IMG/VR virus record: IMGVR_UViG_2645727604_000022
Length of the DNA stretch: 31,466 nucleotides
Strand: one strand, 5' to 3'
From: a virus
Taxonomy: Duplodnaviria > Heunggongvirae > Uroviricota > Caudoviricetes
Part shown: piece after piece, positions 13,611-30,098 of the stretch
How the letters are laid out: the number at the start of each line of letters is the position of its first letter
Position numbering within the stretch: position 1 is the first letter of the stretch
The notes under the pieces: model-generated
The model's database searches: none
The model's input: only the letters and a program-made list of their open reading frames with translations
What the model was told of the DNA's origin: nothing
Translations under genes and position numbers: made by a program

Positions 13611-13640
13611 TTCTGCCTCTCAGATTATATAGATAAGCAA

Positions 13641-14325: not shown

Positions 14326-14404
14326 ACATGAGTGCCCATTGGAAAGTTGCTTGGGCCAATACCTTTATACACCAGCAGGTAGTGACGATAGGTGAGGATC
14401 AGAT

Positions 14405-15503: not shown

Positions 15504-15517
15504 GGCCATCCGTGGCC
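15504..15517. terminator. Short hairpin between the convergent membrane-protein and 705-aa genes
   Basis: GGCCA-TCCG-TGGCC hairpin; weak flanking U-runs. Confidence 0.3.
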
Positions 15518-15522
15518 ATTCA

Positions 15523-17640
15523 CTAGTCATTATCTGGATCATTAGATAGCCAAGTAATGATGCCCAGTCTGGCGATGGTCCGTTTTTCCTGTTCAGGAAG
15601 AGAGTTAAAAAAACTCTTCCATTGAGGGGAGCGCCTGATACGTGAATCAACAATGTGCCCAGGCGCTTTTCCGTGTAGATTTTTTACTGCGCTCTGGAAG
15701 GCTGGCGAGGCAATTAATTTATCCGCAGCATCAGCCGCCCCTGCTCCACCAGCTAATCGAGCTTTACTCGCCAATCTTGCTCCAATATCAGCCCCAGCAA
15801 TGGCTCCAAGCGATCCAAAATGAGCGCCTACCATCGTGCCTATTTTTTGAATGTGTTTTGCTGCTAGTTCGTATGGAGCTGTTACCCGATTAAATCTGTT
15901 TACAAACTCATTCAGCTTACCAGTAGATATTTCATGCGCTTTAGCATTTTTTATTGCTCTGGCAACTTTGTATACATCATATAGTCCGCTCATTGTTTCT
16001 TTTGGCAAATGTTCAGCCAAAGTCTTTAGCTGTCCACTGTGTTGCAAGTTTTGCCACCAATCTGCAAAGCCAGATGGATTAAAGTCGGCCCCACGCTTCC
16101 CAGAGGAAAGCATATCTCTTAATGCTGTTCCTACTAGCTCCCTTCGCAATGTTCTTGATGGAGTATTTTGCATAATCTCACGAAACCCTCTCGCATCACC
16201 TTTTGCCATAGATTGAAGAGAATTCGTTACTTTATACGCTATATCCCCATTAAGTGTTTTCCCGCGAAGATTTACCATTTGCCTTTCTAAGTTTTTTCTC
16301 ATAGCTACAAGGCGTTGTGCGACTTCGAAATCTCGCAAGTATCCAGTATTGGATAAGACAGATTTTTGGTCTTCAGCTAAAGCTCCATATAGTCTTGATA
16401 GCGCTTCTTTATCAGCATCTTTGTATGGCCCCTGCTTTTTATTTAGGGCATCACCAACTAAACGCCTTTGCCTGTTTAAATTTGCATACGTTAGGATTCT
16501 ATCTGGGCCGGGGTTTATTGCTGTAAAAACTCGCTTTTCTATTGGGTCAAGATTATCCCACCCTCCTAAATCATCAGCGATTTTTTCCAGCATAGTGCTT
16601 GTGTTATTTGCTTCGACTTTTGTTCTTGGTGATAGAGCGGAATCAACACGTTTATATAACTGATCACTACGGTTTTTTAGTGCTTCCATTCTACTATTTA
16701 TCTGATAAATATATTTTTCGCTCATAGCTAACGCATCTGGCGCACCAGCAACATCATCGATTATCTTGCCAGCACTAGAGGCTAATTCGCTTATTGCTTT
16801 ATCTTCTTGAGCTTTTAACGCTGATCCTGTCCGTGACTTTAGGGCTTGCTCTACAGCTTGGTATTGCTCATTTCCTGATAAATGAGAAGGAAGAACTGAA
16901 TCAACATGAAGCCTATTTGCAGCCTCAACAATTTCTTTCTGAGGTTTTAGATCTAGCCCTTCAAGCGAAGAGGCAAGATTTGGGTTGCCTTGTGCAGATA
17001 ACTTACGAATTTTCTCTTCGGCAGGAGTAATCCCCTCAATATCTGGAATCGAAGAAACATTCTTCTTGGTTAATTTCCCAGCTATTTTATTAATTGCAGG
17101 GCCAGCAAGTTCGGCTACAGGGCCAGCCACAGCGCCAATAGCAGCGCCGGAAGCAACATCGCTATTTGTTCCATTGGCTACAATAGCCCCTTCTCCAGCA
17201 CCAAGCCCTGCGGCGGCAGCCAGTCTTGCCGCCCCTTTGGGAACCTGAGAAATAATCCCACCACCACTAACAAATGGCGCTGCTTGTCCAACGAACTCAC
17301 CAACATCTTGTGCGGTTGATGGTTTTGCCGCTAACTTCTGCTGTAGAGACTGAATTGCGGCTTGCTCTTCTGGTGTCATATCCTGAAACAGGCCAACACC
17401 TTTACCAACATCCATCAATCCACTGAGAACGCCATACATAAAACGGTCGAAACCGTTAGCATTATTAACAACATTTTCCTGTCTGGAATTTTCCTCTGGT
17501 GAAACCAAAGGTGATTGCTGCTGTTCTGGTTGGGCATCAAGCACAAAACCATCAGGAAGCTGTGAACTATCAGGAAACTGTGAGTTATCAGGTTGTTCAT
17601 CGAGCACAAAACCTTCCGGTAAGATTACATTTGCTGCCAT
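15523..17640 (-). CDS. Hypothetical large Gly/Ala-rich coiled-coil protein (705 aa), last gene of the LexA-box operon
   Basis: N-terminal repeats PEGFVLDEQP / PDGFVLDAQP, long Gly/Ala zipper segments, no P-loop or nuclease motif found. Confidence 0.75.
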   Translation of the reverse strand: MAANVILPEGFVLDEQPDNSQFPDSSQLPDGFVLDAQPEQQQSPLVSPEENSRQENVVNNANGFDRFMYGVLSGLMDVGKGVGLFQDMTPEEQAAIQSLQQKLAAKPSTAQDVGEFVGQAAPFVSGGGIISQVPKGAARLAAAAGLGAGEGAIVANGTNSDVASGAAIGAVAGPVAELAGPAINKIAGKLTKKNVSSIPDIEGITPAEEKIRKLSAQGNPNLASSLEGLDLKPQKEIVEAANRLHVDSVLPSHLSGNEQYQAVEQALKSRTGSALKAQEDKAISELASSAGKIIDDVAGAPDALAMSEKYIYQINSRMEALKNRSDQLYKRVDSALSPRTKVEANNTSTMLEKIADDLGGWDNLDPIEKRVFTAINPGPDRILTYANLNRQRRLVGDALNKKQGPYKDADKEALSRLYGALAEDQKSVLSNTGYLRDFEVAQRLVAMRKNLERQMVNLRGKTLNGDIAYKVTNSLQSMAKGDARGFREIMQNTPSRTLRRELVGTALRDMLSSGKRGADFNPSGFADWWQNLQHSGQLKTLAEHLPKETMSGLYDVYKVARAIKNAKAHEISTGKLNEFVNRFNRVTAPYELAAKHIQKIGTMVGAHFGSLGAIAGADIGARLASKARLAGGAGAADAADKLIASPAFQSAVKNLHGKAPGHIVDSRIRRSPQWKSFFNSLPEQEKRTIARLGIITWLSNDPDND

Positions 17641-18923
17641 TTTCCGTTCCTGTAAATGATTTTCTGACCAGTTTTAGGGTTGGTTGCCGTTGCGCCTTCT
17701 GATATTCCTCCGGTTGCCGCTTTTGCCTGTCCAGTGCCAGCCTGTGATGTAGGCTGCCCGGAAACATCGTCAAATAGCTTCGCTTTCCTTCTTTCAAGGC
17801 TTTTTCTTAGCCCCTGAGGAATAGTTTCTCCATATGTATCGAGATACTCGTCAACCTGCTGGTTAAACTGCTGCCCCATAGCATTGGCGTTGATTTTTGC
17901 GGCGTTAACAATGTTATCCTTTGCCTCCTGCGACAGGCCGTTTCCAGCATTAAGCTGGTCTATGTATCCTTTGATTTGTCCCCATATGCCATCAGACCGC
18001 ATTACCTGAACCTGTTCGCCTTCACGAACGACTGACTGCGGGTCAAGAGATTTCATGTAGTTGAAGATAATCCCAAGTTGGGCAGCGCCAGTATTTACCT
18101 TGCTAAGGGCTTGCAGAGAGTTTGCCGCCGCTCTGACAGAGTTATAATTTTTGCCAAAATTGGTAATGTCAGAATTTAATCCCTTAATTAAGTCTGCTGA
18201 CGGCTTACCTTTTTGCCCCAGCTCCATTAGCTTCAATCCCATCTCATCTGAGTGAATTTGTGCTCGCTGAGCCCTGTCTAGTTGAGCGTTCTGGATATTT
18301 GCCCATCCTCTCGCGTTCTCCATGTCAGCCTGACGCATACTTTCATCCAGTCGCCCTTGCTCAAGTCGACGACCTTCCATTTGATCTTTGATATCGAAAT
18401 ACTTCTCATGACCGAGAGAAAACAGTGCCATACTACCAGCAAGCCGCTGGAACCCCTGTGGATCATTAACATGCATTTCGGCAACAGACTCAGGAGAAAT
18501 TCCCAAGCGACGCATTTCATCTTCGTTATCTGCTATGAATTTTCCAAATGCCCCAGTTCCGAGCGAAGATGCGATTTGAGCACTAGTCGCAAGATGACCA
18601 ATAGAATTTCTCTGGTCGTCATCAATAAAGCCCATCCCTTTCTGAACGCTTTCAAATTCTTCTGGATACTCAGAAATAAGACTGCGCATTTTGTTTCTGT
18701 CTCCAGACTCAAAAGCCCCGGCATATGCTTTCTGAAACTCTGCTTTACGCTGTTGTTGACGTGCCTGCTGATTAATCTCAGCAACGCCTCTTAGCCCCTG
18801 TAGCGCCATTAAACCTACGTTTGGCTGCTGCTGATACTGCACAGGCTGAGGAACGGAAGAACGAGGAGCATTATCATTTTGCGGTGCCATGCTAGGCAGC
18901 CCGCCAAGTTGCCATGTCGCCAT
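17625..18923 (-). CDS. Hypothetical coiled-coil protein (432 aa)
   Basis: Q-rich N-terminus; overlaps neighbouring genes by a few nt (translational coupling). Confidence 0.75.
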   Translation of the reverse strand: MATWQLGGLPSMAPQNDNAPRSSVPQPVQYQQQPNVGLMALQGLRGVAEINQQARQQQRKAEFQKAYAGAFESGDRNKMRSLISEYPEEFESVQKGMGFIDDDQRNSIGHLATSAQIASSLGTGAFGKFIADNEDEMRRLGISPESVAEMHVNDPQGFQRLAGSMALFSLGHEKYFDIKDQMEGRRLEQGRLDESMRQADMENARGWANIQNAQLDRAQRAQIHSDEMGLKLMELGQKGKPSADLIKGLNSDITNFGKNYNSVRAAANSLQALSKVNTGAAQLGIIFNYMKSLDPQSVVREGEQVQVMRSDGIWGQIKGYIDQLNAGNGLSQEAKDNIVNAAKINANAMGQQFNQQVDEYLDTYGETIPQGLRKSLERRKAKLFDDVSGQPTSQAGTGQAKAATGGISEGATATNPKTGQKIIYRNGKWQQM

Positions 18924-19600
18924 TAGAATCCAAGCCCCCCAACAAGACCAATAAGCCCACCACCAATAGCGCCGGCCGCAGTTCCTATTCCAGGAACAAC
19001 GGAACCAAGTTGCGCACCCGCTAAAGCGCCTGATGCTGCCCCACCAATACCACGCGCAAGACTGGATGGCTGCTGCGCCTGACCTGCACGAATAGCGCCA
19101 AGCCCCTGCAAGAGTTGTCCGGTATTATTGGCGTAGTTTTGCCCTGCCGTTGCCTGCCCTGATGCCGCATTCATCCCGACATTTAGCAGGTTTCCATAAT
19201 TTTGCATTTGCCCACTAAGCCAATTGTTATAAAGCATGGGCGCAATGGAAGATAACTGGTTACTGGTAGCTGTTGAGCCAAGCCCCCCGGTAGCTTCTGC
19301 TGAGACAAGGTTCTGATAACGGGCCTGATCTGCCTGTGTTTTATATAAACCAGAACCAAAGAAATCATTCGCGGCTTTATTCTGCCCTTCCAGAGTCATC
19401 AGTCCTTGTAGTTGTTGTAAAGCAGGCAATCCGACTTCTGCATACGGCTTGAGATTATTCATCACCGTATTCCACTGCTCGCGCTGCAAATCAATTGCCT
19501 GCTGCTGGGCCTTCGCCTGAGCTTTAGAGGCACCACCATCACCGCCTTTTTCGTATACGGCACGATTGAGATGTTTATGAGCTATATGGGTAATTAACAT
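18923..19600 (-). CDS. Hypothetical protein with extremely Gly-rich hydrophobic C-terminus (225 aa)
   Basis: C-terminus GIGGAASGALAGAQLGSVVPGIGTAAGAIGGGLIGLVGGLGF. Confidence 0.7.
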   Translation of the reverse strand: MLITHIAHKHLNRAVYEKGGDGGASKAQAKAQQQAIDLQREQWNTVMNNLKPYAEVGLPALQQLQGLMTLEGQNKAANDFFGSGLYKTQADQARYQNLVSAEATGGLGSTATSNQLSSIAPMLYNNWLSGQMQNYGNLLNVGMNAASGQATAGQNYANNTGQLLQGLGAIRAGQAQQPSSLARGIGGAASGALAGAQLGSVVPGIGTAAGAIGGGLIGLVGGLGF

Positions 19601-20055
19601 TCGCTGAATTCCTTATATTGTTGCCGAGTTAACTGATAAAGCGTTACGCCGACGGGTTTACCACATCTGATATAAGCATCATCAAGGTGACCAACACGGG
19701 TAGCGCCAAGCAAACGGATAATTGCCCGTCCGTATTTCGTGGTGTCAGGAACCATAGTGATGCTGTTAAGGAATGGTGAGTTTTCGAGAAGCCATTTGCA
19801 GAATAATCGATGTCCTTGCAGTGCATATTCACCACGGAATCCGGGGTCGTACACCGCATGGCATTCAACAACGCTATGCCAGAAGTTACGCACTTCATGA
19901 ACGCCAGCCAGCACTAATCCTTCGTAGATGCCGAGATATACCGCATCAGGCTTGATGTAGTACGTGTGCCCCGGCTCAACAATATTTTCGGTATTGCCTG
20001 GCTCGTTAAGAAAGGCCTGTAATCGCACAGGGTTATCAATAAATTTTAGTTCCAT
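19594..20055 (-). CDS. Hypothetical protein (153 aa)
   Basis: ORF coupled to downstream genes; no diagnostic motif (GNAT motif looked for and not found). Confidence 0.7.
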   Translation of the reverse strand: MELKFIDNPVRLQAFLNEPGNTENIVEPGHTYYIKPDAVYLGIYEGLVLAGVHEVRNFWHSVVECHAVYDPGFRGEYALQGHRLFCKWLLENSPFLNSITMVPDTTKYGRAIIRLLGATRVGHLDDAYIRCGKPVGVTLYQLTRQQYKEFSEC

Positions 20056-20071
20056 GCGATGCCATCCATTT

Positions 20072-20233
20072 TCACATACAGCCTGCCAGCGCCTTATCTA
20101 TTAACCCTCGTGCAATTTCATGCAGAGTTGGCGCTACTCCAATTCCTGATTTTTTACGCTGCTCTTCCTGAATTTTCTTTATCGCTTCCATTTGCTTCTC
20201 ACTTATCAATACCGGCTTTACTGAAATAGCCAT
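20072..20233 (-). CDS. Small RHH-like putative regulator (53 aa), first gene of the operon; not in the ORF track
   Basis: Hand translation MAISVKPVLISEKQMEAIKKIQEEQRKKSGIGVAPTLHEIARGLIDKALAGCM; GGGGG 5 nt before ATG. Confidence 0.45.
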   Translation of the reverse strand: MAISVKPVLISEKQMEAIKKIQEEQRKKSGIGVAPTLHEIARGLIDKALAGCM

Positions 20234-20248
20234 AACGCCCCCTTAGAA

Positions 20249-20264
20249 CTGTATAAAACAACAG
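20249..20264. promoter_or_regulatory. LexA-type SOS box CTGTATAAAACAACAG, immediately downstream of a perfect TATAAT (20267-20272, minus strand)
   Basis: Matches CTGT-N8-ACAG with an AT-rich spacer; sits 16-31 bp upstream of the RHH start codon; only such box found in the window. Confidence 0.45.
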
Positions 20265-20678
20265 TTATTATAGTTTCACAAATCGCAATATTCATCATCG
20301 TAATTGCAAAATATGAAACAAATAGCACAAAAAAATGCCACCGCTCAGTAGCTGGTGGCATCGTTCTGTGTGTCAGGTTTTGACAGGTTTTTTATGGACT
20401 CTAAAAACTATATTTATGGTGTCGCATTACTCTTCACGGCAGGCGCTTTTCAGTTCTGCCCTTGCTTCTGGCTCCATTGGTAATTTGATTCGCGATCAGC
20501 TATGCGGATGGTTTGCTGAACAGGCATAACAACTTCTCAGAGGCTGTTTTCTGAACTACGAAAATTTCGTAGTGCTCACTTTCAAAAACGTCACGCCCTT
20601 GTACACAGGATTTTACGAAAGTCTCGTAAAACACTCTCTGATGCCAGCCAGGTGTTGTGCGCATCAATTCAGTCACAT

Positions 20679-20799
20679 TGTGTTGGTTCAAAATACCGTG
20701 TTGTTGGTTCAGTGTTGGTTCAATAAAAAGAATAAAATCCTTATAAAACAATACTCTTTACAAATTGAACCAACTGAACCAACTGAACCAACACCTTTT
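20679..20799. repeat. Iteron cluster IR-R: inverted partner of 13641-13770, 19 bp downstream of the primase-helicase stop
   Basis: Three spaced GTTGGTTCA then TGAACCAACTGAACCAACTGAACCAAC. Confidence 0.65.
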
Positions 20800-20817
20800 C
20801 TACGCACATGAAGAAGC

Positions 20818-23577
20818 TCATTCTTCAGATGAGTTATAATCTCCTGGCTGGTAATTGAGTACATAAACGTTTATTTGTCGTCCCTGAATACGTGGTGATT
20901 TTCTTTGGTATCCACGACCGCTGTTTGGTGGGGTTAGCATCCCGGCTTTTTTCAACACTTCAGCAAACTGTTTTGCGTTGAAACCACATGCGATCTCCTT
21001 TTCAAATGTGGCCGGGAATGTGTAGAAAATCATTGGGCTTTCGTCATGTTCTCCACGCTGACGGTATCCGGCTAAATCTTTGATGGGCAAATCTGCCGGG
21101 CTGTATGGAAATGGTGCAAAACGGCTAAGCCCATAGGCATTAAGAAATGCCTCCGTTTGTTCAATAATCTGCTGATGCTCTTTGTTACCTGTGCCGAACT
21201 CGCGCAACCATGCGTTATAGCTGTGCTGTATCGCATCACGGCATGTCTGAGCATCCCAGCCTGTTACAACCTCGCCTAACAACAATGCGGCCTCCAGAAT
21301 GGCAAATCGCGCGGCTACACGGTGAACCTGCTCACCATAATCGGATGGGATCAGGCTTCTCCATCTGCTTTCGCAGTCACGAACGGTTTTAATAGCCTGT
21401 TGCTGGTGGTCTGCCAGCCATTTAATCCACTCACGCCCGGACGCGCCGTGGTGATGCTGGTAAGCGTCTTTCAGTGCGTCTGCGTGCTGTTTTCCGTTCT
21501 GGTAATCGTGAAAGCGTACTGCTTTACTCAACGGAATATTCAGCAGTCGCACCAGTTGCCCGGCTTTGGTTTTTCGCCCGGAAGTAGCGATAAATGTTTC
21601 TAAATCCATTTCTCCGGTGCTGATTGCCACTGTACGCCAGCGTTTTAGATCCCGGTTTCCACCATCTTTAGCGCCTTGCAGTTTCCCTACACCGTTAAAT
21701 AACGCATAGGCAGACTGTGAGACGCTGACAGGATCAGCGCCCTGACCAACTTCATCAAGCGGCATTAGTCCGTCATTGTGGGCGGCGGCCTCATTTGCCA
21801 GCCCCAGCGCGGTTCCGTACCACGTCAGCCGCAGTAAATCAGGGTTGCCGTATAAGCTGCTCGCCACGTTTGCCGTGGTGGTCTTACCTGCGCTCGACTG
21901 CTCATAGAAATGAATGCCGAACCCGTCAGCGCCCACCAGCCCAATCAATGGCGCTGCCAGTGCTGCGCCGATCCCGGTCATCATTGAATAGTTACCAAAG
22001 GACAGACGCGCCACGTTATCACGCCAGCTTTTCTCGCTCCCTGAGACGGTATATCCGGCTGCGGCTGAGCTTCTCCCGCTGAACAGCACAGGATTTTCAG
22101 GTGTTCCGATGATTTCCCCATCAGGCATGATGTACGCTCCGCATTGCCAGCCAGTGGCATGAGCAACACGCCACAATTCACGAGAGCCACTGCGTTGTAG
22201 CCAGTCTGCCAGTATTGCTCTGAGGCTGCTTTTGGTCGTGACATTTACCCCACCAGCTTTAAGTGTGCGCCATCCTTCACGTTCACCAATATCAGCCAGT
22301 GGAATGGCAGCGGTTGTCGGCGTTTCAGAACCAAACGACAGCCAGCGAAGAATGAGATACTGGTCTTTATCGTCTCTGCCAGTACCGATAACGCTTAACG
22401 GAGAACATAACCAGCTTTCGTTATTGATGATTTCTCCACTCTGGCTGTCAGCTCTCGGAGATACCCAATAAATACCATCCTCGCGGCTTTCTATTCTTGG
22501 TTTCAGTGGATCGGTATCCATAACCTTAAAATCGCTTCCCTCAATGGTCTGTGGCTCCTGTTTCACGCCATTACCCTGTGGTTGGTACATTGACTTATTG
22601 AACGCTTCTGTGGCGCATTTAATGCCGTGTTTTTGGTGGTAATCATTCCAGTCTGCTTTGTGATCTGTCGGGGGTAATGCCACCCATCCAGAAACAGATA
22701 AAGCTGCTTTTTCTGCTGCTATTCTCCCCGTGTTTTGTCTTCCTTCGCTGTGGTCGTTATCCGCAGCAATGATGATTTGTGCTGAAGGAAATTTATCCCG
22801 CAGTACCTGGGCGACATATAACAGGTTCCCGGCATCAATCGCCGCCACTGTCAGCGCCTCTGGACGCATTAAATGGGCAGATAATGCCGTTGCCAGCCCT
22901 TCTGCGATTAAGATGCTCTGTGTTGTTTCTGGTGCGTTTATGGCGTGATATGCCCCTCGCTTTGCTGAACCTGTCAGGAGTCTTTTTTCACCATGTGAGG
23001 TAATAGTCTGTGCTGCTGTTACTGCGCCGGATTTATCCACCAGCGCCAGCAACAGAGATCCATCGGGCAACACGGGGAATGTAAAATCACCTACCCCTTT
23101 CGCAACCAGATAATCAGATTTGCCGTTTACAGCCTTTCTGCGCATGTCATCAAACTGACGGGAAAACGTATCCCGTCTTTGTTGTTCGTCCTTCTCTGCC
23201 CTTTTCAGGCGCTCCTGTTCGCGTCGCTGGCGCTCGGTTTCCAGTTGTTCCCGTTTCTGGCTGGTGGCTTCTGGTGTTTCCGTTGTCCGGTAATCAATAC
23301 CCAGAACATCAGCGGCAAGAAGCGCCGCCTCTGTTGTGTCGCAGTTATTTACGCGTTTAATTAAATCCAGCCCATCACCAGCGCCGCACTGATTACAGAT
23401 GAAGCTACCGCGCCCGTTGTCATCGAACCGGAATCGATCTTTGCCCCCACATGCAGGGCAGGGAGCATGACGGCGCGGAGAGTCAGGGACATTTATGTTC
23501 AGGCAGCCCAGCACATGAGGCCAGTTGTTTTCAGACGCACTGATAACCTGACGGATAAGATCAATGTTTCGCATCAC
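20818..23577 (-). CDS. P4 alpha-like primase-helicase (919 aa)
   Basis: N-terminal zinc-ribbon CPACGG...CNQCG, P-loop YEQSSAGKTTT; size and context typical of satellite/island replication proteins. Confidence 0.85.
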   Translation of the reverse strand: MMRNIDLIRQVISASENNWPHVLGCLNINVPDSPRRHAPCPACGGKDRFRFDDNGRGSFICNQCGAGDGLDLIKRVNNCDTTEAALLAADVLGIDYRTTETPEATSQKREQLETERQRREQERLKRAEKDEQQRRDTFSRQFDDMRRKAVNGKSDYLVAKGVGDFTFPVLPDGSLLLALVDKSGAVTAAQTITSHGEKRLLTGSAKRGAYHAINAPETTQSILIAEGLATALSAHLMRPEALTVAAIDAGNLLYVAQVLRDKFPSAQIIIAADNDHSEGRQNTGRIAAEKAALSVSGWVALPPTDHKADWNDYHQKHGIKCATEAFNKSMYQPQGNGVKQEPQTIEGSDFKVMDTDPLKPRIESREDGIYWVSPRADSQSGEIINNESWLCSPLSVIGTGRDDKDQYLILRWLSFGSETPTTAAIPLADIGEREGWRTLKAGGVNVTTKSSLRAILADWLQRSGSRELWRVAHATGWQCGAYIMPDGEIIGTPENPVLFSGRSSAAAGYTVSGSEKSWRDNVARLSFGNYSMMTGIGAALAAPLIGLVGADGFGIHFYEQSSAGKTTTANVASSLYGNPDLLRLTWYGTALGLANEAAAHNDGLMPLDEVGQGADPVSVSQSAYALFNGVGKLQGAKDGGNRDLKRWRTVAISTGEMDLETFIATSGRKTKAGQLVRLLNIPLSKAVRFHDYQNGKQHADALKDAYQHHHGASGREWIKWLADHQQQAIKTVRDCESRWRSLIPSDYGEQVHRVAARFAILEAALLLGEVVTGWDAQTCRDAIQHSYNAWLREFGTGNKEHQQIIEQTEAFLNAYGLSRFAPFPYSPADLPIKDLAGYRQRGEHDESPMIFYTFPATFEKEIACGFNAKQFAEVLKKAGMLTPPNSGRGYQRKSPRIQGRQINVYVLNYQPGDYNSSEE

Positions 23578-23932
23578 CGTACCCCACGTGGTCTATAGCG
23601 TTTGCGATATGGCTAACTAGCATCTGCCACTTGGTTATTCCGTAATCAGTCAGCATGCCATCATTGTTTAGCCACATATCAAATTCAGCGGTTGTCGCAA
23701 GTTTCCACTTATCGCCGTGGACAGTCCTCATTGCTGGGTACATGAATGCGCAAATCAGATCACAAACATCTGACGGCTTCAGAGATGTAGTAATGGTGCG
23801 TCCCTCTGGCGTCTGAATTGCCATTTTCTCTTCACCAGTAGAATGAAGGTTATGAATCCACACAGCACCAGCAATCTTTGCCACCTGCTCTCCGATTGCG
23901 GAGCTAAGCGCCATTTCTACATTTTCACGCAT
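23561..23932 (-). CDS. Hypothetical protein (123 aa)
   Basis: ORF overlapping the primase start (coupled). Confidence 0.55.
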   Translation of the reverse strand: MRENVEMALSSAIGEQVAKIAGAVWIHNLHSTGEEKMAIQTPEGRTITTSLKPSDVCDLICAFMYPAMRTVHGDKWKLATTAEFDMWLNNDGMLTDYGITKWQMLVSHIANAIDHVGYGDAKH

Positions 23933-24266
23933 GAGAACCTCCCGCTACAGTTGCGCCCATGTCATTAACCATGCTTTGCCATATCTCACGCCCGACGTCA
24001 GTCAATCTGTCCTTAGTGACGCAACGATCAAGAAGCTCGATCCCCACGGTTTCCCACTGCGGGTAGAACACTTTCATGGCTGCCAGTGCGTAACTATCGA
24101 TCAGGCTGCGAACGCCTTTTACTCCATTGACGATTTCCACACGGACGGCCTCTCCGTCCGCATCAATCATGAAATAGTCCCCGCCGCTGGTGGAGGTAAT
24201 GTGGTTATACAGTGCTGACGCATACTTATTTGCCAGCGCATTCAGTCGGAAATTTTTAGTAATCAT
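23925..24266 (-). CDS. Hypothetical protein (113 aa)
   Basis: ORF in the coupled gene chain. Confidence 0.55.
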   Translation of the reverse strand: MITKNFRLNALANKYASALYNHITSTSGGDYFMIDADGEAVRVEIVNGVKGVRSLIDSYALAAMKVFYPQWETVGIELLDRCVTKDRLTDVGREIWQSMVNDMGATVAGGSHA

Positions 24267-24276
24267 GGCTCCATCC

Positions 24277-24879
24277 TCAGTGCGTCACTGGTTCCGCTGG
24301 CATGCCGTTTTCATTCAGTTCAGCTATAAAGCTGTTGTGAAGTTCAGCAAGCGTTTCACGACCAAATGGAGTCAGTGCTCCTTGTTCCACATCCATCATG
24401 GCTCTGTAGAAAATGATGGCGCGTTCTGTGCCAGACTCGATGCCAAAACGTTCTATCATCGCGCCCTCAATGTTGTTTGCCATAGCGAGGCGCTCTGCTA
24501 CTGGATACAGCGGCATGGCGACGATGCCGTTGGAATAAACAGCCACTTCGGAAGGATTGCCAGTATCATCAATGATGCTGACAGTGCCGTTTTCCTTTCT
24601 CATTTCATTGATGAATGCTGTTGCTATCAGCCAGCGCCACATAATCACGTGATGCTGTGATGTGTAATCGAAATATCCCTGGTTGCCGCCACTGGCAATA
24701 GCGAGATGTATAAACATGCCTTCATCTGGTTTATCGTCATAATCCCCGGCATCCAGACGATTTACGGCATCAATATATGAGACGGTCTCAACGCGTTCTG
24801 TCATGCCATCGTTGCTGCGGTACATGATGTTTACGCCGTCAGGCGTTGCTTCTGCATGGAAAGTTAAGAAATTATTCAT
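24277..24879 (-). CDS. Hypothetical protein (about 200 aa; start assigned to internal ATG 24879 rather than ORF-track 24984)
   Basis: GAGG 6 nt before ATG 24879; 8-nt overlap with the upstream gene. Confidence 0.5.
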   Translation of the reverse strand: MNNFLTFHAEATPDGVNIMYRSNDGMTERVETVSYIDAVNRLDAGDYDDKPDEGMFIHLAIASGGNQGYFDYTSQHHVIMWRWLIATAFINEMRKENGTVSIIDDTGNPSEVAVYSNGIVAMPLYPVAERLAMANNIEGAMIERFGIESGTERAIIFYRAMMDVEQGALTPFGRETLAELHNSFIAELNENGMPAEPVTH

Positions 24880-25093
24880 GTTTCGCCTCGCCTGAATGAT
24901 TCTGTAACTCATATTTGCCCAACAATTCGTCTGCTTCCTGAATAGCTTCTGGTACGCCATTGAGCAGTGACATAACCGCGCCAATCATTAACTTGTCTCT
25001 GTTGCTGGGGCTGGCCCCTTCAAGCCAGAACCCTAAAACAGTCTGAACCTGTTCGATGCGACATTGCGCTTCAATGAGCTGGATGTTGGTCAT
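24872..25093 (-). CDS. Hypothetical small protein (73 aa)
   Basis: ORF in the coupled gene chain. Confidence 0.45.
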   Translation of the reverse strand: MTNIQLIEAQCRIEQVQTVLGFWLEGASPSNRDKLMIGAVMSLLNGVPEAIQEADELLGKYELQNHSGEAKHE

Positions 25094-25353
25094 TTCGCAC
25101 TCTCCACATCGATTAAACCGATATCTATCAGGGAGGTAACTTTTTGTAGCCAGCTATTGATTACTGTCGCCTGTTCCCCTCCCACCGAGGGAACAATCTC
25201 ATTCATCACATGAACCAGACCTGTGCGCGCTCTGGTAAGCCGTTCAGTCGCGCAATCTGCGGGAGTGAATGTGTCTGGATATGGCTCTTCGCGCCCCAGC
25301 AATGATTCAATTTCCAGCTCACACGGATGACGATAAATTAAGTTGATATTCAT
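25090..25353 (-). CDS. Hypothetical small protein (87 aa)
   Basis: ORF in the coupled gene chain. Confidence 0.45.
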   Translation of the reverse strand: MNINLIYRHPCELEIESLLGREEPYPDTFTPADCATERLTRARTGLVHVMNEIVPSVGGEQATVINSWLQKVTSLIDIGLIDVESAK

Positions 25354-25544
25354 TTTTCACCCCCAAGAATTACCAGCTCGGCACGGGCATCGTTAACCAA
25401 AGATGAGCACGCTTTAATCGCATCCACGACATCAGCAGCGTCCATTTCTTCAGCCGAAAGACTGACAGCAACCAGGACAGCCGCTGCTTGCTCGATTAAT
25501 TGAAGTGCGGACGTAAGGCGAGGGGTATTAATTGAGTTATTCAT
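25350..25544 (-). CDS. Hypothetical small protein (64 aa from ATG 25544)
   Basis: GGGGG 6 nt before ATG; 8-nt overlap with the upstream gene. Confidence 0.45.
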   Translation of the reverse strand: MNNSINTPRLTSALQLIEQAAAVLVAVSLSAEEMDAADVVDAIKACSSLVNDARAELVILGGEK

Positions 25545-25755
25545 TGGTTGCCCCCGTTTTGCATGGCATTTGTCCACCTTCCAGCAGGAAATGAACGTCA
25601 CGAACGGCGAGATCCAATATCGCGAGTAACGCCTTCAGTCTTTCGTCTCGTGAGGGAGAGTTGCTCACCAGAATGTCGTTAATCACTTCTGTCAGTGTGA
25701 TGATCTGGCTTGTGCGTTCGAGGGGATCCATATGCACATCGTAGGTTTTAATCAT
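25537..25755 (-). CDS. Hypothetical small protein (72 aa)
   Basis: SD GGAGG 6 nt before ATG 25755; lies in the C-terminal frame of the 342-aa track ORF. Confidence 0.45.
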   Translation of the reverse strand: MIKTYDVHMDPLERTSQIITLTEVINDILVSNSPSRDERLKALLAILDLAVRDVHFLLEGGQMPCKTGATNE

Positions 25756-25942
25756 GTGCCACCTCCATGCGGATACGACCAGCAAAAAAGCAGATGTGAT
25801 CGCGCACCAGAGAACGGCGAGCATCGCGTTCAGACTCGGCAGCAATATGATGAATTTTGGCGGTAATTGTCGGGCAATCGCGGCGAACTGCGGCGATAAT
25901 CCAGATAAATTGCGGTTTTTGGGTAGGGGTAGTAGCCAGCAT
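25748..25942 (-). CDS. Hypothetical small protein (64 aa), first gene of the coupled chain leading to the primase
   Basis: Strong SD AAGGAGG 7 nt before ATG. Confidence 0.5.
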   Translation of the reverse strand: MLATTPTQKPQFIWIIAAVRRDCPTITAKIHHIAAESERDARRSLVRDHICFFAGRIRMEVAHD

Positions 25943-26099
25943 GTGGCAGCCTCCTTGATTGATGTTTTATAGCCACCGCCGGAGGTCCTAAGCTCGCTGG
26001 CGGTGGACTGTACAGGGTTAGGACTACTGGCAATCAAGGAAACCAGCCTGACCGAAGTCAGCCCCATACAGCCCACCATTGATAAGGTGTGCGTGTGCG

Positions 26100-26230
26100 C
26101 CGATACAAAAAAAGACGCTGGCGCGTCATGTATCGCCTCGATTGCCTGCGGGGTCCTAATCCCGGCACCCGTTTTATGAGGTGCCTTATAACCATAAACC
26201 GTGTTGCCGCATAACGGCAAGCTCTTTTTT
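26100..26230 (+). ncRNA. Candidate structured small RNA ending in an intrinsic terminator
   Basis: Hairpins GACGC-TGGC-GCGTC (26114-26127), GGCACC-N10-GGTGCC (26164-26185), terminator TTGCCG-CATAA-CGGCAA followed by CTCTTTTTT (26204-26230). Confidence 0.3.
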
Positions 26231-26565
26231 ATGGACTCCGAAAACTCACTATTGGAAGAACCAGAGGCACAGTACATCGCGCTCATTTCGTTAACGTCGC
26301 GCGTGCGGACGAAGATTTTTGTGGAGTCACTACGCGAGCAGAACAGGTCATCTACGACCAGAAATTCTCTGGCGCAGCCGCTGACCTTCTCAACGCTAAC
26401 ACCATCGACCGTAATTTCTGACATAGTTAAGGCATCCGCTCCTACCACCATAAAATGATAAGCTTTGCTTGTATCTGCTGTATTAATGCCAGACTTTGCT
26501 GTCATATTGCTGGATTTTTGCGACATAGCAGTCAGTGAAAATATCTTCTTCTGGACGGTTAGCAT
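26170..26565 (-). CDS. Protein-like N-terminal part of the ORF starting at 26565; 3' end unresolved (frame stays open to 25537)
   Basis: SD GGAGG 7 nt before ATG 26565, coupled to the upstream gene; the first ~130 codons look protein-like, the following codons read like translated structured RNA; the 26170 end is arbitrary. Confidence 0.3.
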
Positions 26566-26741
26566 TTGTTAACCTCCGCGAACTCCTTCATGAAGCGCGC
26601 CAGCGGTTGTACGCATGGCGATTGATACCCGTCGCGATAAAACGTCACTCGGTTGTGAGACACGCTTTCGACAGTAACGAGTGCTCCGTGGGCATCTTTG
26701 TAGCGTTTTTGAGGTTGTGGTGTTCCTGTCGGCTTAAACAT
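26559..26741 (-). CDS. Hypothetical small protein (60 aa from ATG 26741)
   Basis: SD GGAGG 6 nt before ATG; start overlaps the AntA-like stop. Confidence 0.4.
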   Translation of the reverse strand: MFKPTGTPQPQKRYKDAHGALVTVESVSHNRVTFYRDGYQSPCVQPLARFMKEFAEVNKC

Positions 26742-27567
26742 GGACCGCCTCCAGACGCTTGGCGAGCCAGCGTTGCGACAGGCGGGTGAGTTCTCCTTTG
26801 CGCTGCTCATATTCCATGCCCATATCAATTAACGTGATATTGGTGCTTTCGAGATATGAGAGGTGCTCAAGCTGTTCTGCGTTCATATGGTCGCGAGGTT
26901 CGCCAGAATAGCCATTTATCCGCGCCCACTGCTTAGCAGTTAGCCCTCCAAGAACGATACGAGAAATCATATTGCTCTCGTTTGTGTAGTGGTGTTGCTG
27001 CGTCGTTTTCCCCTGCTCGGCACGGGCCATATTCAGCGCATCGCACATTGGCTTAAAGTTGTTTGCGGCACTGATACGGGCTTTTAGCTGGCGACGATAG
27101 CGGGCGGCGATTTCAGGCACGCTACGCTGTAATTCTTCCTCGCACTGGATGAAATAACGACGGATAGCGCGACCCTGATCATTGCGTTCGATCATTGCCA
27201 GCTCTTTCGCCATTCCGACACTTAACAGATAGTCTTTGCCGGGTCTGCCAGACTGCTTAATCTTGCTGTAAGCCGTGCCATTCGGGCTTTTCCCCAAATT
27301 TGGGGAAATTGTTTTATGGACTGAGTAATCGTGCCCAATGGTGAAGTCATATTCAGAGATGCGATCAGTGATCCATGTAGAGAAGTCTTTTCCCACGCCC
27401 AACGCTTTGTGTAACGCTTTTGCGCTAACAATATTGGTTTCACGCCCACCGATGTGACCAGGAATAACCGGGACAATTGCGGCAAATTCATTACCGTTAA
27501 TTGTGCCCAGAGAGGCGTTCAGATGAGGGGCGGCCTCAGAAATTAATCTGCTTTTTTCGATGTTCAT
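26734..27567 (-). CDS. AntA/AntB-type antirepressor-like protein (277 aa)
   Basis: N-terminal segment SAKALHKALGVGKDFSTWITDRISEYDFTIGHDY matches the AntA domain pattern as recalled. Confidence 0.6.
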   Translation of the reverse strand: MNIEKSRLISEAAPHLNASLGTINGNEFAAIVPVIPGHIGGRETNIVSAKALHKALGVGKDFSTWITDRISEYDFTIGHDYSVHKTISPNLGKSPNGTAYSKIKQSGRPGKDYLLSVGMAKELAMIERNDQGRAIRRYFIQCEEELQRSVPEIAARYRRQLKARISAANNFKPMCDALNMARAEQGKTTQQHHYTNESNMISRIVLGGLTAKQWARINGYSGEPRDHMNAEQLEHLSYLESTNITLIDMGMEYEQRKGELTRLSQRWLAKRLEAVHV

Positions 27568-27579
27568 TTTCAGTCTCCG

Positions 27580-28011
27580 TTAGGCGGCGTTAAACGCGTC
27601 CGGGTAGAGTTTCAGAATGTCGGCAATTTCCTGCTGAGAAAGTCCGTTGTGATCATTTATGTTCGCAAGATGGTTAATATGAGTGATCACTTTCAGAACA
27701 TCACCACGGCAGGAGAAACGGTAGCGAAGGTGTGTTCCGATACCATCAGGATTCTTTTCGTCGATACGCTCCAGAGTGATTCCAAGCTGGCGTTCTAACT
27801 CTGTTGCATAGTTACGACCAGAAGACAGACGGCAGTAGCGAAGAATGTCATTTTCTGTCCATCCCTCTATACCAGTACGCAGCATATAGACTCTGGCACG
27901 ATGCTTTTTCGGTGTGCGCTTTGGTGCTTGAAGGGATTTTGTAAGGGGCGTAACATCAGATACACGAATATCTGAATTAGCCGCCTGTAATGGGCGGTTT
28001 TTCTTTTCCAT
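27580..28011 (-). CDS. Hypothetical putative DNA-binding protein (143 aa)
   Basis: ORF coupled to alpA (ATGA overlap); basic N-terminus, HTH-like segment RLSSGRNYATELERQLGITL. Confidence 0.5.
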   Translation of the reverse strand: MEKKNRPLQAANSDIRVSDVTPLTKSLQAPKRTPKKHRARVYMLRTGIEGWTENDILRYCRLSSGRNYATELERQLGITLERIDEKNPDGIGTHLRYRFSCRGDVLKVITHINHLANINDHNGLSQQEIADILKLYPDAFNAA

Positions 28012-28214
28012 CAGGCCACCTCGTCTCTAGATTCTAATATACACTTCTCAATCCATTCATCTATTTCAGACTCAACAAAAGCAATTGCCCGACTTCCAAT
28101 TTTTACCTGTTTAGGGAACCTCCCCTGACTAATAAGACGATAAATCCATGCTTTGCTATAACCAGTTCGCCTTTGAACTTCAGAGAGACGAATTAATGAA
28201 TTGTAATTAGCCAT
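28011..28214 (-). CDS. alpA: AlpA-family excisionase / transcriptional regulator (67 aa)
   Basis: LIRLSEVQRRTGYSKAWIYRLISQGRFPKQVKIGSRAIAFVESEIDEWI matches the AlpA pattern. Confidence 0.8.
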   Translation of the reverse strand: MANYNSLIRLSEVQRRTGYSKAWIYRLISQGRFPKQVKIGSRAIAFVESEIDEWIEKCILESRDEVA

Positions 28215-28436
28215 TTATTAATATCCTGTACTAATGACGCAATAACCCCCTCCTGCAACGAATGGCGAGAGTTTTATTTGCGTCAAATGTCGAATACGCC
28301 AAAGACCACAATATGAAAAACATATTGCGGTCTTTTATAAAAGATAGTCAGATTGTTTTGGTTTGTTCGCTCCACAAGGGTAGAGCTACCCTGCATTTCG
28401 GCAGGATCACGCTATTAGGCGTGACATCCAGTAGTT

Positions 28437-28499
28437 TTAAAGAACAATTGCGCTTTGTCAGCGCCAAAGCCTGTTAAAGAACATTCCGCTTTGTCAGCG
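28437..28499. repeat. Two direct 26-27-bp repeats TTAAAGAACA(A/T)T(T/C)(G/C)CGCTTTGTCAGCG between int and alpA
   Basis: Copies at 28437-28463 and 28474-28499. Confidence 0.3.
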
Positions 28500-28642
28500 A
28501 CGTAGAAGGCTCAATACACCTTCGTTTATAAAAGAGCGATTGCCCTTCTCCAGGGCTAACTGTTAAATAGCAATCCTCTGTGAGTTTTTATCAATCTACT
28601 CCCCTATACTTTAGTAAACCTCTGTATACTTGTCCAGTTGTT

Positions 28643-29857
28643 TCATGCGTGTTTTTCAAACACCATATGCACCACATTTCCGCCATGCTCGAGAGAATCC
28701 ATATAGTCGGCATACCATTGAAGCATCTCCCGCCTTCCATCCAGATATTGCGCATGGTTGTATGTGCCACGAATTGAGTTCTTATCAACGTGAGCGAGCT
28801 GCGTTTCTATCCACGCGGTGTTATAGCCCTGCTCATGCAAAATCGTACTCATAGTGTGCCGGAACCCATGACCAGTTACACGTCCAGCGTAGCCAATGCG
28901 CTTAAACACTTGGTTTATGCTGGCCTCACTCATTGTTTTCCTTGGATCATTGCGCCCGGGAAACATAAGAGGGTAATTGCCTGTTATTTCTCTAATCTTC
29001 CCAATAAGCGAAAGAGCCTGATCAGACAATGGCACAATATGAGGCCGCCGCATTTTCATACGTGAAGCGGGTATCTCCCAGATAGCCTTGTTGAAATCAA
29101 TTTCATCCCATAATGCGCCACGTAGTTCGCCAGTCCGCAAGCCGGTGATAATCAGTAGACGAGCCGCCATAACAACCAATGCGCTTCCTGAGTAACTGGA
29201 CAATGCCTTGAAAAAATCAGGTAATTCTTTAGCTGTAAGGAAAGGGTAATGATTAGATTCATGGCCTTGCATCGCGCTAGTAAGGTCTGGTGCAGGGTTA
29301 TACTCTGCGCGACCAGTGACTATTGCATAGCGGAAAACTTCCCCGCACCGCTGCCTCACTTTTTTGGCTTTTTCTGTAGCACCGCGCCCCTCGATGCGCC
29401 GCAGCACATTCAGAAGTTCAAGTGGTTTGATTTCGGCGATTGGTTTTTTGCCAATGTAAGGGAACACATCTTTGTTGAAGGCTTCGAGGATGTCTGAAGC
29501 ATAACCAGCAGACCATTTTTTTAATTTGCTGCTGTGCCACTCAAGGGCAATATCTTTGAAGGTGTTGTTTAACTGCGTTTCCCGGGCAATCTTTTCCTCT
29601 CGTTTCGCTTCCATCGGATCGATACCACCAGCGATACCTCTTTTCGCATCTTCACGTTTTGCCCGAGCATCGGCTAGAGTAACCTCAGGATACACACCTA
29701 GTGCCAATAGCTTCTCTTTACCAGCTACACGATATTTAAGTCGCCAGTATTTACCTCCATTAGGTTTTACCAAGAGATACAAACCGCCACCATCGGCCAG
29801 CTTGTAAGCCTTCTCTTTTGGCTTGGCTGTGTCTATTTGACGGGCATTGAGTTTCAC
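28643..29857 (-). CDS. int: P4-type tyrosine integrase (404 aa)
   Basis: N-terminus MKLNARQIDTAKPKEKAYKLADGGGLYLLVKPNGGKYWRLKYR typical of tRNA-targeting P4-like integrases; catalytic HGFRHT and Tyr region near the C-terminus; adjacent to tRNA. Confidence 0.9.
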   Translation of the reverse strand: MKLNARQIDTAKPKEKAYKLADGGGLYLLVKPNGGKYWRLKYRVAGKEKLLALGVYPEVTLADARAKREDAKRGIAGGIDPMEAKREEKIARETQLNNTFKDIALEWHSSKLKKWSAGYASDILEAFNKDVFPYIGKKPIAEIKPLELLNVLRRIEGRGATEKAKKVRQRCGEVFRYAIVTGRAEYNPAPDLTSAMQGHESNHYPFLTAKELPDFFKALSSYSGSALVVMAARLLIITGLRTGELRGALWDEIDFNKAIWEIPASRMKMRRPHIVPLSDQALSLIGKIREITGNYPLMFPGRNDPRKTMSEASINQVFKRIGYAGRVTGHGFRHTMSTILHEQGYNTAWIETQLAHVDKNSIRGTYNHAQYLDGRREMLQWYADYMDSLEHGGNVVHMVFEKHA

Positions 29858-29888
29858 TTGGGGGTACCTCCACTAAACCGAACAGCAA

Positions 29889-29913
29889 ATACCCCCATAA
29901 GTACCCCCATCTG
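29889..29913. repeat. Tandem TACCCCCA motif ATACCCCCATAAGTACCCCCATCTG, right-end copy (candidate arm-type site)
   Basis: Partner of 12264-12288. Confidence 0.4.
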
Positions 29914-29922
29914 ACCGTAGAT

Positions 29923-30005
29923 TTTGAGGGACTTTAGTAGACGTCAAAAGACGAACGGGGCTTTAATACGCGGATTATAAGGGGTTTTGAAAGACTTTAG
30001 TAGAC
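29923..30005. repeat. Two direct 21-bp repeats TTTTGA(GG/AA)GACTTTAGTAGAC between int and attR
   Basis: Copies at 29923-29942 and 29985-30005. Confidence 0.4.
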
Positions 30006-30020
30006 TTGGGGAGATGTTTG

Positions 30021-30039
30021 AATGGTGCCGATAATAGGA
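30021..30039. repeat. attR: 19-bp core overlapping the 3' end of tRNA-Thr
   Basis: Identical to 12184-12202. Confidence 0.6.
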
Positions 30040-30098
30040 GTCGAACCTACGACCTTCGCATTACGAATGCGCTGCTCTACCAACTGAGCTATATCGGC
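30023..30098 (-). tRNA. thrW: tRNA-Thr (anticodon CGU)
   Basis: Reverse complement reads GCCGATATAGCTCAGTTGGTAGAGCAGCGCATTCGTAATGCGAAGGTCGTAGGTTCGACTCCTATTATCGGCACCA; 7-bp acceptor stem, anticodon loop TTCGTAA. Confidence 0.9.

Follow-up and report, generated by a model that had tools for sequence, protein, structure and literature searches.

A stretch of 31,466 nt from a virus record of the Caudoviricetes (IMG/VR IMGVR_UViG_2645727604_000022), referred to here as the window, contains a series of hairpins at 25990-26250, and an open reading frame (ORF) of 342 codons on the minus strand (25537-26565) passes straight through them. The question raised by this locus is what the hairpins are, which strand encodes them and why a long reading frame is open across them. 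The initial annotation had read them as a plus-strand RNA, antisense to the minus-strand operon, which ended in a terminator at 26204-26230, was duplicated in part at 20337-20401 and might link two operons. The hairpins are very probably the minus-strand RNAs isrK and C4, which make up an immunity switch of the P4 type in a phage-inducible chromosomal island (PICI). The identity of the two RNAs (Rfam isrK and C4, in a published PICI family) was already known, as C4 and isrK matches in the 'Bro zone' of Gram-negative PICIs have been published (PMC10111431).

Identity and strand of the structured RNAs

An Rfam scan and a covariation analysis across relatives, both proposed in the initial annotation, were decisive. 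The scan found two structured regulatory RNAs, and the covariance models matched the minus strand only:

26108-26184, minus strand: isrK / P4-seqA-type RNA (Rfam RF01394, 63 bits against a gathering threshold of 50, full model matched)
26107-26127, minus strand: intrinsic terminator of isrK, GACGCGCCAGCGUC followed by U7 (stem 26127-26114; terminator scan and Rfam alignment)
25996-26083, minus strand: C4 / P4-CI-type antisense immunity RNA (Rfam RF01695, 80.2 bits against a gathering threshold of 45, model positions 1-87)

The isrK RNA is made up of a 5' hairpin, a second hairpin exposing the site a1 (UUAGGAC, 26153-26159), the site b1 (CAAUCGAGG, 26136-26144) and its own terminator, which was stronger in a consensus scan than the plus-strand hairpin at 26204-26220. 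The C4 RNA carries a b' loop (UCCUUGAUUG, 26031-26040) and the site a' (GUCCUAA, 26018-26024). Models RF01394 and RF01695 also matched seqA and the cI RNA of P4, and IsrK has been described as a structural homologue of P4 seqA (PMC4825925). Both RNAs are listed in some GenBank phage records on a segment about 90% identical to window positions 25921-26184; neither is listed in the three E. coli annotations checked.

Folding confirmed the hairpin series as such, with z = -2.9 for the plus strand of 25990-26250 and z = -4.6 for the minus strand of 25945-26184. For the comparison across relatives, 118 loci were gathered via the neighbouring Icd-like protein, among which 87 distinct isrK-C4 cassettes were found. 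Both structures were supported. In hairpins 1 and 2 of isrK, 95% of the cells were paired, compensatory changes occurred in 9 of 12 pairs and none of 500 shuffles reached an equal score. The Rfam structure of C4, a long closing stem with two hairpins, was paired in 99.8% of the cells over 42 distinct sequences and was backed by compensatory changes in 16 of its 27 pairs; again, no shuffle out of 500 equalled the score, and slid alignments paired only 31-50%. Of the 1134 paired cells of C4, 189 were G.U, which on the plus strand become A.C, so that pairing drops to 83.2%. Because of this difference the RNAs are assigned to the minus strand, and the placement of the RNA antisense to the operon has to be given up.

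Promoter, plus-strand hairpin and second locus

Three further elements bear on the strand and on the supposed duplication:

26191-26220, minus strand: putative constitutive promoter, equivalent of P4 PLE (-35 TTGCCG at 26215-26220, 18-nt spacer, -10 TATGGT at 26191-26196)
26204-26230, plus strand: terminator-like hairpin (stem 26204-26220, 6 bp with four GC pairs, followed by GCTCTTTTTT)
20337-20365, minus strand: intrinsic terminator of the replication operon, GCCACCAGCUACUGAGCGGUGGC followed by U7

The first base of isrK lies 6 nt after the -10 hexamer, and the transcription start is predicted, by analogy, at about 26184. On its upstream side the -35 hexamer is abutted by AAAAAAGAG. The geometry is identical to that of P4 PLE (TTGCCT, 18 nt, TATAGT, 6 nt, seqA). 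Although a simple promoter scan did not flag the site 26191-26220, CTTGC(C/G) and TATGGT were kept across 81 distinct upstream variants, and 15 close relatives were invariant throughout the block 26184-26246, compared with 17-19% variable sites in the flanks.

A 6-bp hairpin followed by a T-run is present at 26204-26230, as had been claimed. Its stem, however, consists of the -35 hexamer and the first 11 nt of the spacer of the minus-strand promoter, and its T-run is the complement of the upstream A-tract AAAAAAGAG. The dyad was present in some promoter variants and absent in others, and neither the ORF list nor the promoter scan yielded a plus-strand gene or promoter-like site feeding the hairpin. 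The plus-strand 'terminator' thus appears to be a by-product of the promoter sequence and not the end of a plus-strand unit.

At the second locus, the hairpin at 20337-20365, taken at first for a plus-strand terminator preceding the second motif copy and for the second GCCACCGC hairpin, is the minus-strand terminator listed above; the hairpin directly before that copy has about five weak pairs, as judged by eye. The 8-mer GCCACCGC occurs twice in the window, and two or more occurrences were obtained in 9 of 100 shuffles; it was rejected as a shared element, being at chance level. When 20000-20900 was compared with Rfam at E <= 5, only noise was obtained (plant and animal microRNA models on an AT-rich iteron region). 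The 'partial duplication' amounts to a 22-mer, TTTTTTATGGACTCYRAAAACT, alone, because neither sequence comparison nor alignment by eye revealed similarity of the two loci outside it.

It is therefore hardly credible that a structured plus-strand RNA ends at 26204-26230, is partly duplicated at 20337-20401 and links both operons. Such an RNA would fit the better-than-shuffled folding of the plus strand, the hairpin with its T-run and the 22-mer repeat, all of which are real. It conflicts with the strand of the covariance-model matches, the loss of the 189 G.U pairs of the C4 helices, the lack of any plus-strand promoter-like site in the scan, the poor conservation of the dyad and the minus-strand nature of the second hairpin; at the second site there is no second RNA, and nothing links the operons via RNA.

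The 342-codon reading frame

The reading frame that crosses both RNAs, and the genes it meets, are as follows:

25537-26565, minus strand: P4-eta-like ORF of 342 codons, 'ash family protein' (Pfam PF10554, Phage_ASH)
26559-26741, minus strand: DUF4222 gene
25748-25942, minus strand: icd / P4-kil-like gene, 64 aa (NCBIfam NF033153, 70.4 bits; labels of homologues given by the Prokaryotic Genome Annotation Pipeline, PGAP)

The long ORF opens with an ATG overlapping the DUF4222 stop codon (ATGCTAA), 7 nt behind a GGAGG. From there the ORF spans a fragment of P22 DNA starting at a variant of the packaging site pac, the promoter, isrK, C4 and, in another frame, icd, and it ends in frame with a 72-aa gene. 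The Phage_ASH match (55.4 bits against a cut-off of 26) covers residues 124-219, that is window positions 25909-26196, which are exactly isrK, C4 and the leader. The eta frame of P4 also matched Phage_ASH, with 82.3 bits. P4 eta has been described as a long ORF that begins upstream of PLE and is translated only from an induced upstream promoter, its translation blocking immunity-dependent termination (PMC10111431). Like eta, the ORF of the window begins upstream of the promoter, adjoins the gene before it, to which it may be coupled, and continues across isrK and C4.

The same sense frame was open from upstream of isrK to past C4 in 83 of the 87 cassettes, with a median ORF length of 252 codons; the other two frames were open in 1 and 4 of 87. 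Distances from isrK to C4 were 98, 101, 125, 128, 131, 140, 143, 146 or 185 nt, all of them 2 modulo 3, in 84 of the 87 cassettes. Where the cassette is exchanged in EcCIMP1, the PICI of E. coli MP1, 1 + 38 nt are added (39 nt, or 13 codons), and the ORF remains open. The start, an ATG or GTG overlapping the end of DUF4222 behind GGAGG, was kept even where the next 80-440 nt were unrelated.

From the passage of the ORF through the region it had been argued that part of it is not coding. This holds insofar as no ordinary protein gene is present, but an ORF crossing an RNA gene need not be non-coding: selection keeps the frame open, as in P4 eta (PMC10111431). It is improbable, although more probable than a plus-strand RNA, that the 342-codon ORF is an annotation artefact which is never translated and is open by a chance lack of stop codons in conserved RNA. 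An artefact would account for the exact coincidence of the Phage_ASH match with isrK, C4 and the leader, for an N-terminus that is in part the antisense of a P22 gene fragment, for variable sites without third-position bias, and for the pseudogene label that PGAP gives to the same ORF in other genomes despite its intact frame. It would not account for a single phase in 84 of 87 cassettes at isrK-C4 distances of 98-185 nt, for non-homologous upstream regions of 80-440 nt that are all open and each start at GGAGG with a start codon overlapping the end of DUF4222, or for the function reported for eta translation in P4 (PMC10111431).

PGAP was inconsistent on one intact frame (loci L001, L002 and L126). 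In E. coli A20, which is 99.9% identical to the island of the window, a full-length 'ash family protein' was annotated and the Icd-like and 72-aa genes were suppressed; in MP1 and AH19B041, an 'ash family' pseudogene was given and icd was annotated.

Three observations weigh against an eta-like role of the ORF. The icd gene of the window (start at 25942) is not in the frame of the long ORF; the two are in frame in P4, where the gene is kil, and in loci L017, L035 and L082. Variable sites over the first 319 nt, the N-terminal third, were distributed 21:14:23 over the codon positions, so that the third-position wobble looked for there, which the initial annotation had named as typical of protein coding, was absent; the lack of third-position bias means that selection is seen for the open frame but not for a protein product. 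Finally, 83 of 87 does not represent 83 independent events, as cassettes share descent, and the spacer-length classes are the more independent evidence. On balance, the long ORF is best read as an eta-like read-through frame, probably neither noise nor a conventional protein.

Antisense pairing and the proposed switch

The target of C4 lies between the RNA and icd:

25945-25995, minus strand: target leader, equivalent of P4 seqC / P1 a2b2 (a2 UUAGGAC at 25985-25991; b2 CAAUCAAGGA at 25952-25961)

The b2 site overlaps the Shine-Dalgarno sequence of icd, AAGGAGG (25950-25956), and direct reading of the sequence showed that the b' loop of C4 is complementary to CAAUCAAGGA across it. The GUCCUAA of C4 is complementary to UUAGGAC, of which the leader has one copy and hairpin 2 of isrK another. 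C4 thus has complementary targets on both sides, and the downstream one includes the icd ribosome-binding site. The a2 site lies in the loop of an alternative hairpin (25972-26007) that the leader can form with the 3' arm of C4 and that is the GCCACCGC hairpin noticed in the initial annotation. This hairpin is genuine, because an exact complement of the C4 3' arm of at least 7 nt was found downstream in 66 of the 87 cassettes, mostly at 18 nt, and co-varied with the arm. The lowest-energy fold predicted has the middle of isrK paired in cis with the C4-like segment that follows it.

Duplex energies were compared over 54 C4 types. Mean values for C4 with the leader were -37.1 kcal/mol for cognate and -28.4 kcal/mol for non-cognate partners, and with isrK -37.0 and -25.0 kcal/mol; the cognate partner ranked best in 22 of 54 cases for the leader and in 36 of 54 for isrK. 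When window positions 25958-26160 were compared with EcCIMP1 (locus L126, 18650-18900), the backbone was identical and the immunity cassette exchanged. The a', a1 and a2 sites all switch from UUAGGAC in the window to UUCGCAG in EcCIMP1, and b', b1 and b2 all switch from AUUG/CAAU to GUAC, which suggests that the two cassettes are heteroimmune versions of one switch.

By analogy with P4 and P1, the constitutive promoter would start minus-strand transcription at about 26184, the majority of transcripts would end at the isrK terminator, and those reading through would carry C4, to be processed by RNase P into a stable antisense RNA. Pairing of its a' and b' sites with a2 and b2 of the leader would mask the ribosome-binding site of icd, and the same sites could pair with a1 and b1 of isrK. 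As in P4, P1 and Gifsy-1, icd, presumably the first gene under C4 control, would then be left untranslated, transcription would terminate early and the replication genes through the primase gene (20818-23577) would be silent. Upon helper induction, transcripts arriving from upstream (alpA-antA-DUF4222) would be translated through the 342-codon ORF, coupled to DUF4222, and ribosomes moving across isrK and C4 would override termination, as proposed from P4 eta. This last step is supported because the reading frame and the arrangement of Shine-Dalgarno sequence and start codon are conserved. It tells against the scheme as a whole that P4 and P1 are the source for the transcription start, for the processing of C4 and for the dependence on Rho. 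In its parts, the set of isrK, C4, PLE-like promoter and icd/kil-like gene is the counterpart of PLE-seqA-CI-kil of P4.

The 22-mer repeat

The recurrence of the 22-mer, also claimed at first, was borne out. TTTTTTATGGACTCYRAAAACT occurs exactly twice in the window, at 20388-20409 and 26225-26246, and no match was found in 100 shuffles, even at three mismatches. The repeat units are:

26223-26246, minus strand: copy 1, AGTTTTCGGAGTCCATAAAAAAGA in the sense strand, positions -62 to -39 relative to the start of isrK
20386-20409, minus strand: copy 2, AGTTTTTAGAGTCCATAAAAAACC, outside any ORF

Copy 2 has the replication module on one side and, on the other, the terminator and the LexA-box promoter of the late zone. 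A motif scan of viral contigs gave more than 120 loci, which fell into two settings: upstream of isrK or, far more commonly, inside small-terminase (terS) genes. Upstream of isrK, the 22-mer occupied the fixed position -62 to -39 in about 30 of the 81 promoter variants.

Several explanations of the repeat were rejected. Plus-strand small ORFs starting in the motif (MDSEN..., 75 aa; MDSKNYIYGVALLF..., 29 aa) had no Shine-Dalgarno sequence, no Pfam match and no similarity past the motif. That copy 2 encodes the C-terminus of a gene on the minus strand is contradicted by stop codons 1 and 3 codons upstream, and that it is a degenerate second promoter-isrK module, by the lack of a -10 hexamer and of anything similar after the motif, as judged by eye. 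Copy 2 as a module junction was dismissed, the break in locus L053 being a coincidental insertion sequence (IS) insertion. In that locus, an IS3-family element is inserted at about 8042 (window position 20414), 5 nt from copy 2. The 29-codon plus-strand ORF at 20394-20483, which starts in copy 2 and encodes the hydrophobic peptide MDSKNYIYGVALLFTAGAFQFCPCFWLHW without a Shine-Dalgarno sequence, is probably meaningless.

Small-terminase units and a possible role in packaging

In terS genes the 22-mer encodes (K/E)F(S/L)ESIKK, just past a helix-turn-helix-like segment, and copy 1 is identical to the F-S-E-S-I-K-K codons of that terS family. The proteins of this type ('MARPTKYQ...') matched no Pfam model and have a C-terminal tail like that of Sf6 gp1. 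Codon usage was tested with a fully degenerate codon pattern, avoiding selection by nucleotide sequence, in lineages with less than 60% flank identity. In 19 terS lineages the codons were TTT (19/19), TCG (14/18), GAG (17/19), TCC (16/17), ATA (16/19), AAA (19/19) and AAG (15/19), while the following Gly codon was random and flanking synonymous sites were mixed. Among same-amino-acid comparisons, the codon was identical in 73.6% within the motif versus 40.7% in the flanks. This conservation at synonymous sites marks TTTTCGGAGTCCATAAAAAAG as a cis-acting nucleotide element in terS genes. The 22-mer repeat is a DNA unit and not an RNA.

Further terS-like units were found in the window:

26311-26417, plus strand: 107-bp fragment of P22 gene 3 (small terminase), 92.5% identical, starting exactly at pac (annotation of AF527608.1)
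14943-14962, minus strand: Sf6-type terS-like unit AATTTCGTGACCAGTACGCG, one of a small array (about 14870-15050) located distally in the island
13269-13288, minus strand: weaker, single Sf6-type unit, also distal

The gene 3 fragment is enclosed by the long ORF, to which it runs antisense, and is 65 nt away from copy 1; the island itself lacks a terminase gene. Its pac variant GAAGATTTTTGTGGAGTCACTA agrees with GAAGATTTATCTGAAGTCGTTA of P22 at 17 of 22 positions; five of the eight mismatches of the fragment fall within the 22-bp pac and only three in the following 85 bp. The pac site of P22 has been described (PMC8022706, PMC9611059). In related islands the stretch from DUF4222 to the promoter consists of 2-5 units in the same orientation, of which three types occur: AGTTTCGNGACNAGTACGCG-like, P22-pac-like (GAAGATTT...ACGCGAG) and the 22-mer. 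The AGTTTCGNGACNAGTACGCG unit corresponds to the E-F-R-D-Q-Y-A segment of Sf6-type terS genes, in which the codons GAC (19/20), TAC (20/20) and GCG (16/20) prevailed and codons were identical in 63.8% of comparisons versus 36.5% in the flanks. Altogether, 74 terS-like units were counted in 102 regions upstream of isrK (32 of Sf6 type, 34 of the third type and 8 of P22 type), and none in controls. Same-orientation arrays in loci L022, L035, L179, L243, L379 and L390 are copies of post-helix-turn-helix codons from three terS families.

The pac site of Sf6 lies inside the DNA that encodes the DNA-binding domain of TerS. There is about an even chance that the 22-mer and its sister units are TerS recognition (pac-type) sites, copied so that a helper phage packages the island. 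Just as evenly balanced is the suggestion that the copies come from at least three small-terminase families of P22-like phages, namely P22 gp3, Sf6 gp1 and the third, 'MARPTKYQ...' type. In many relatives the units are arranged as same-orientation arrays, which lie within the eta-like ORF a short way upstream of the immunity promoter, and also near the late zone. EcCIMP1 has no terminase gene, and its packaging mechanism was left open (PMC11773190).

Four points speak against packaging sites. Copy 2 is conserved in A20, L090 and L106 but has one single-nucleotide polymorphism in EcCIMP1 itself. The AAAAAAG half of copy 1 fits an UP-like element of the promoter and is common to relatives lacking GAGTCCAT. 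Kapi1, the proven helper of EcCIMP1, lacks both the 22-mer and the P22 pac in its terS. Also, the 'equivalent position' of the units across terS types was judged by eye, because BLASTP among the three types left the N-terminal domains unaligned and showed only a C-terminal tail shared by two of them. The terS of Kapi1 is of Sf6 type and carries GATTTTCGCGACAAGTACGCG; Kapi1 was rejected as the origin of either the 22-mer or the P22 pac fragment.

A less likely explanation is that the 22-mer is a transcriptional element (an UP element, or an operator bound by a regulator of the island or of a helper phage) or a conserved Ash/Eta peptide motif, EFSESIKK, instead of a packaging signal. It would agree with the fixed position at -62 to -39 in every type-A relative and the invariance of the block 26184-26246, with an AAAAAAGRG abutting the -35 hexamer also in relatives without the rest of the motif, and with the in-frame position of copy 1 within the long ORF. 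It is at odds with copy 2, which lies outside ORFs and ahead of a terminator and is followed by no recognisable promoter, and with the sister units of the arrays, which keep the DNA but shift the frame (AGT TTC GAG ACC versus GAG TTT TCG GAG). Nor does it explain why terS genes, which lie far from any such promoter, keep the same 21 nt even at synonymous sites. Among the interpretations considered here, the 22-mer as one of several terS-derived units is the sole part that may be new.

The island and its gene map

The att core TCCTATTATC, the same as the published core of EcCIMP1, is present as direct repeats at 12193-12202 and 30030-30039, which delimit the island, the right-hand one falling within tRNA-Thr (CGT). 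Since the att core is shared and the match to the island of E. coli MP1 is about 98%, window positions 12193-30039 contain an EcCIMP1-type PICI at tRNA-Thr. An int gene, alpA, a Bro-zone gene, a primase gene, a late zone and tRNA-flanking att repeats were all present, as in Gram-negative PICIs of the EcCIMP1 type. The DNA left of 12193 is part of another island. The gene order was derived from PGAP-annotated close relatives, Pfam and NCBIfam:

30023-30098: tRNA-Thr
28643-29857, minus strand: integrase
28011-28214, minus strand: AlpA
27580-28011, minus strand: 143-aa protein
26734-27567, minus strand: AntA-family protein
about 25945-26246, minus strand: immunity cassette
23561-25755, minus strand: six small genes
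20818-23577, minus strand: TOPRIM/DUF927 primase
about 15523-20300, minus strand: LexA-box promoter and P22-like ejection-protein genes

A LexA-box-like sequence, CTGTATAAAACAACAG (20249-20264), overlaps the TATAAT of the promoter that precedes the captured P22-like genes (15523-20233, minus strand). These comprise a 53-aa ORF, a DUF2824/gp14-like gene, a gp7-like gene, a gp20-like 'DNA ejection protein' and a 705-aa gp16-like protein, and parts of this late-gene region are 81-89% identical to Kapi1. Directly downstream of the primase gene, at 20680-20800, an AT-rich cluster of GGTTCA(G/A)TT iterons in inverted blocks was found. A partial inverted copy is located about 7 kb away at 13640-13749 (87% over 89 nt), and the pair is reminiscent of ori and crr of P4. 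The iteron region of EcCIMP1 has one additional 10-nt repeat.

Significance

The locus matters chiefly for annotation: in hundreds of E. coli genomes, a coding sequence labelled 'ash family protein' or 'pseudogene' covers two curated RNA families. The hidden RNAs are the on/off switch of a mobile island, and in the published description of EcCIMP1 the coding sequence was treated as a conserved protein. Conservation of the frame shows that this RNA cassette generally has the P4 layout, in which translation of an ORF overrides the RNA genes nested in it. The 22-mer is the single lead worth following. If it proves to mimic a packaging site, this would explain the packaging of an island without terminase, left open by the EcCIMP1 study, and the match between helpers and islands could be predicted by a simple sequence rule. 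A single island could then serve helpers of different packaging specificities either as cargo or as a decoy, and the still unmapped pac sites of two terS families would be located.

Comparison with known systems

The immunity region of P4 (PLE, seqA, cI RNA and seqC, followed by kil and nested in eta) has the same order of parts as the cassette of the window. Both are recognized by the same Rfam models and share the promoter geometry, an Icd/Kil-like first gene followed by the primase operon, and a long ORF that begins upstream of the promoter, reads through both RNAs and matches Phage_ASH. They differ in the isrK-C4 spacer (24 nt in the window, about 108 nt in P4) and in the frame of icd, which is out of frame with the long ORF in the window, whereas kil is the in-frame end of eta in P4. 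The ORF is coupled to DUF4222 in the window and to an alpA homologue in P4; also, the window holds a PICI with P22-like late genes, while P4 is a P2-dependent, cos-packaged satellite.

With immI of P1 and P7 (C4, a1b1/a2b2, icd and ant; RF01695, RF03163) the cassette shares the fold of C4, the complementarity of a' and b' to upstream and downstream sites, the latter covering the ribosome-binding site of icd, and the occurrence of heteroimmune variants through coordinated change at all sites. In the window, however, the antirepressor-family gene lies upstream of the cassette and not downstream of icd, and a replication operon is controlled. The Gifsy-1 region IsrK-orf45/STnc1160-anrP (PMC4825925) has an RNA of the isrK family in common with the window, a short terminated RNA alongside a read-through transcript (predicted for the window) and pairing in cis between the middle of isrK and a C4-like segment, resembling 'structure A' (in the window, a predicted fold). 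In Gifsy-1 the short IsrK activates translation of orf45-anrP in trans, whereas in the window icd and then the replication genes lie downstream. Hfq binding and action in trans on its own read-through mRNA have been reported only for the IsrK of Gifsy-1 (PMC4825925).

EcCIMP1, the E. coli MP1 PICI mobilised by Kapi1 (PMC11773190), is about 98% identical in its backbone and has the same att core, tRNA-Thr site and gene order from int to the ejection-protein genes; by comparison, the immunity cassette of the window has another specificity and is 39 nt shorter. In its description the 'Ash family protein' was taken as a protein and no RNAs were reported (PMC11773190). With the pac site in gene 3 of P22, the units of the window share a short cis-acting site within terS coding sequence, and the gene 3 copy begins at pac. 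The pac copy of the window differs, however, at 5 of 22 positions, the 22-mer belongs to a terS family without a mapped pac, and several unit types stand together as arrays. A copy of a helper signal carried by a satellite is also known from other mimics of packaging signals, such as cos in P4 and in PICIs of the EcCICFT073 type.

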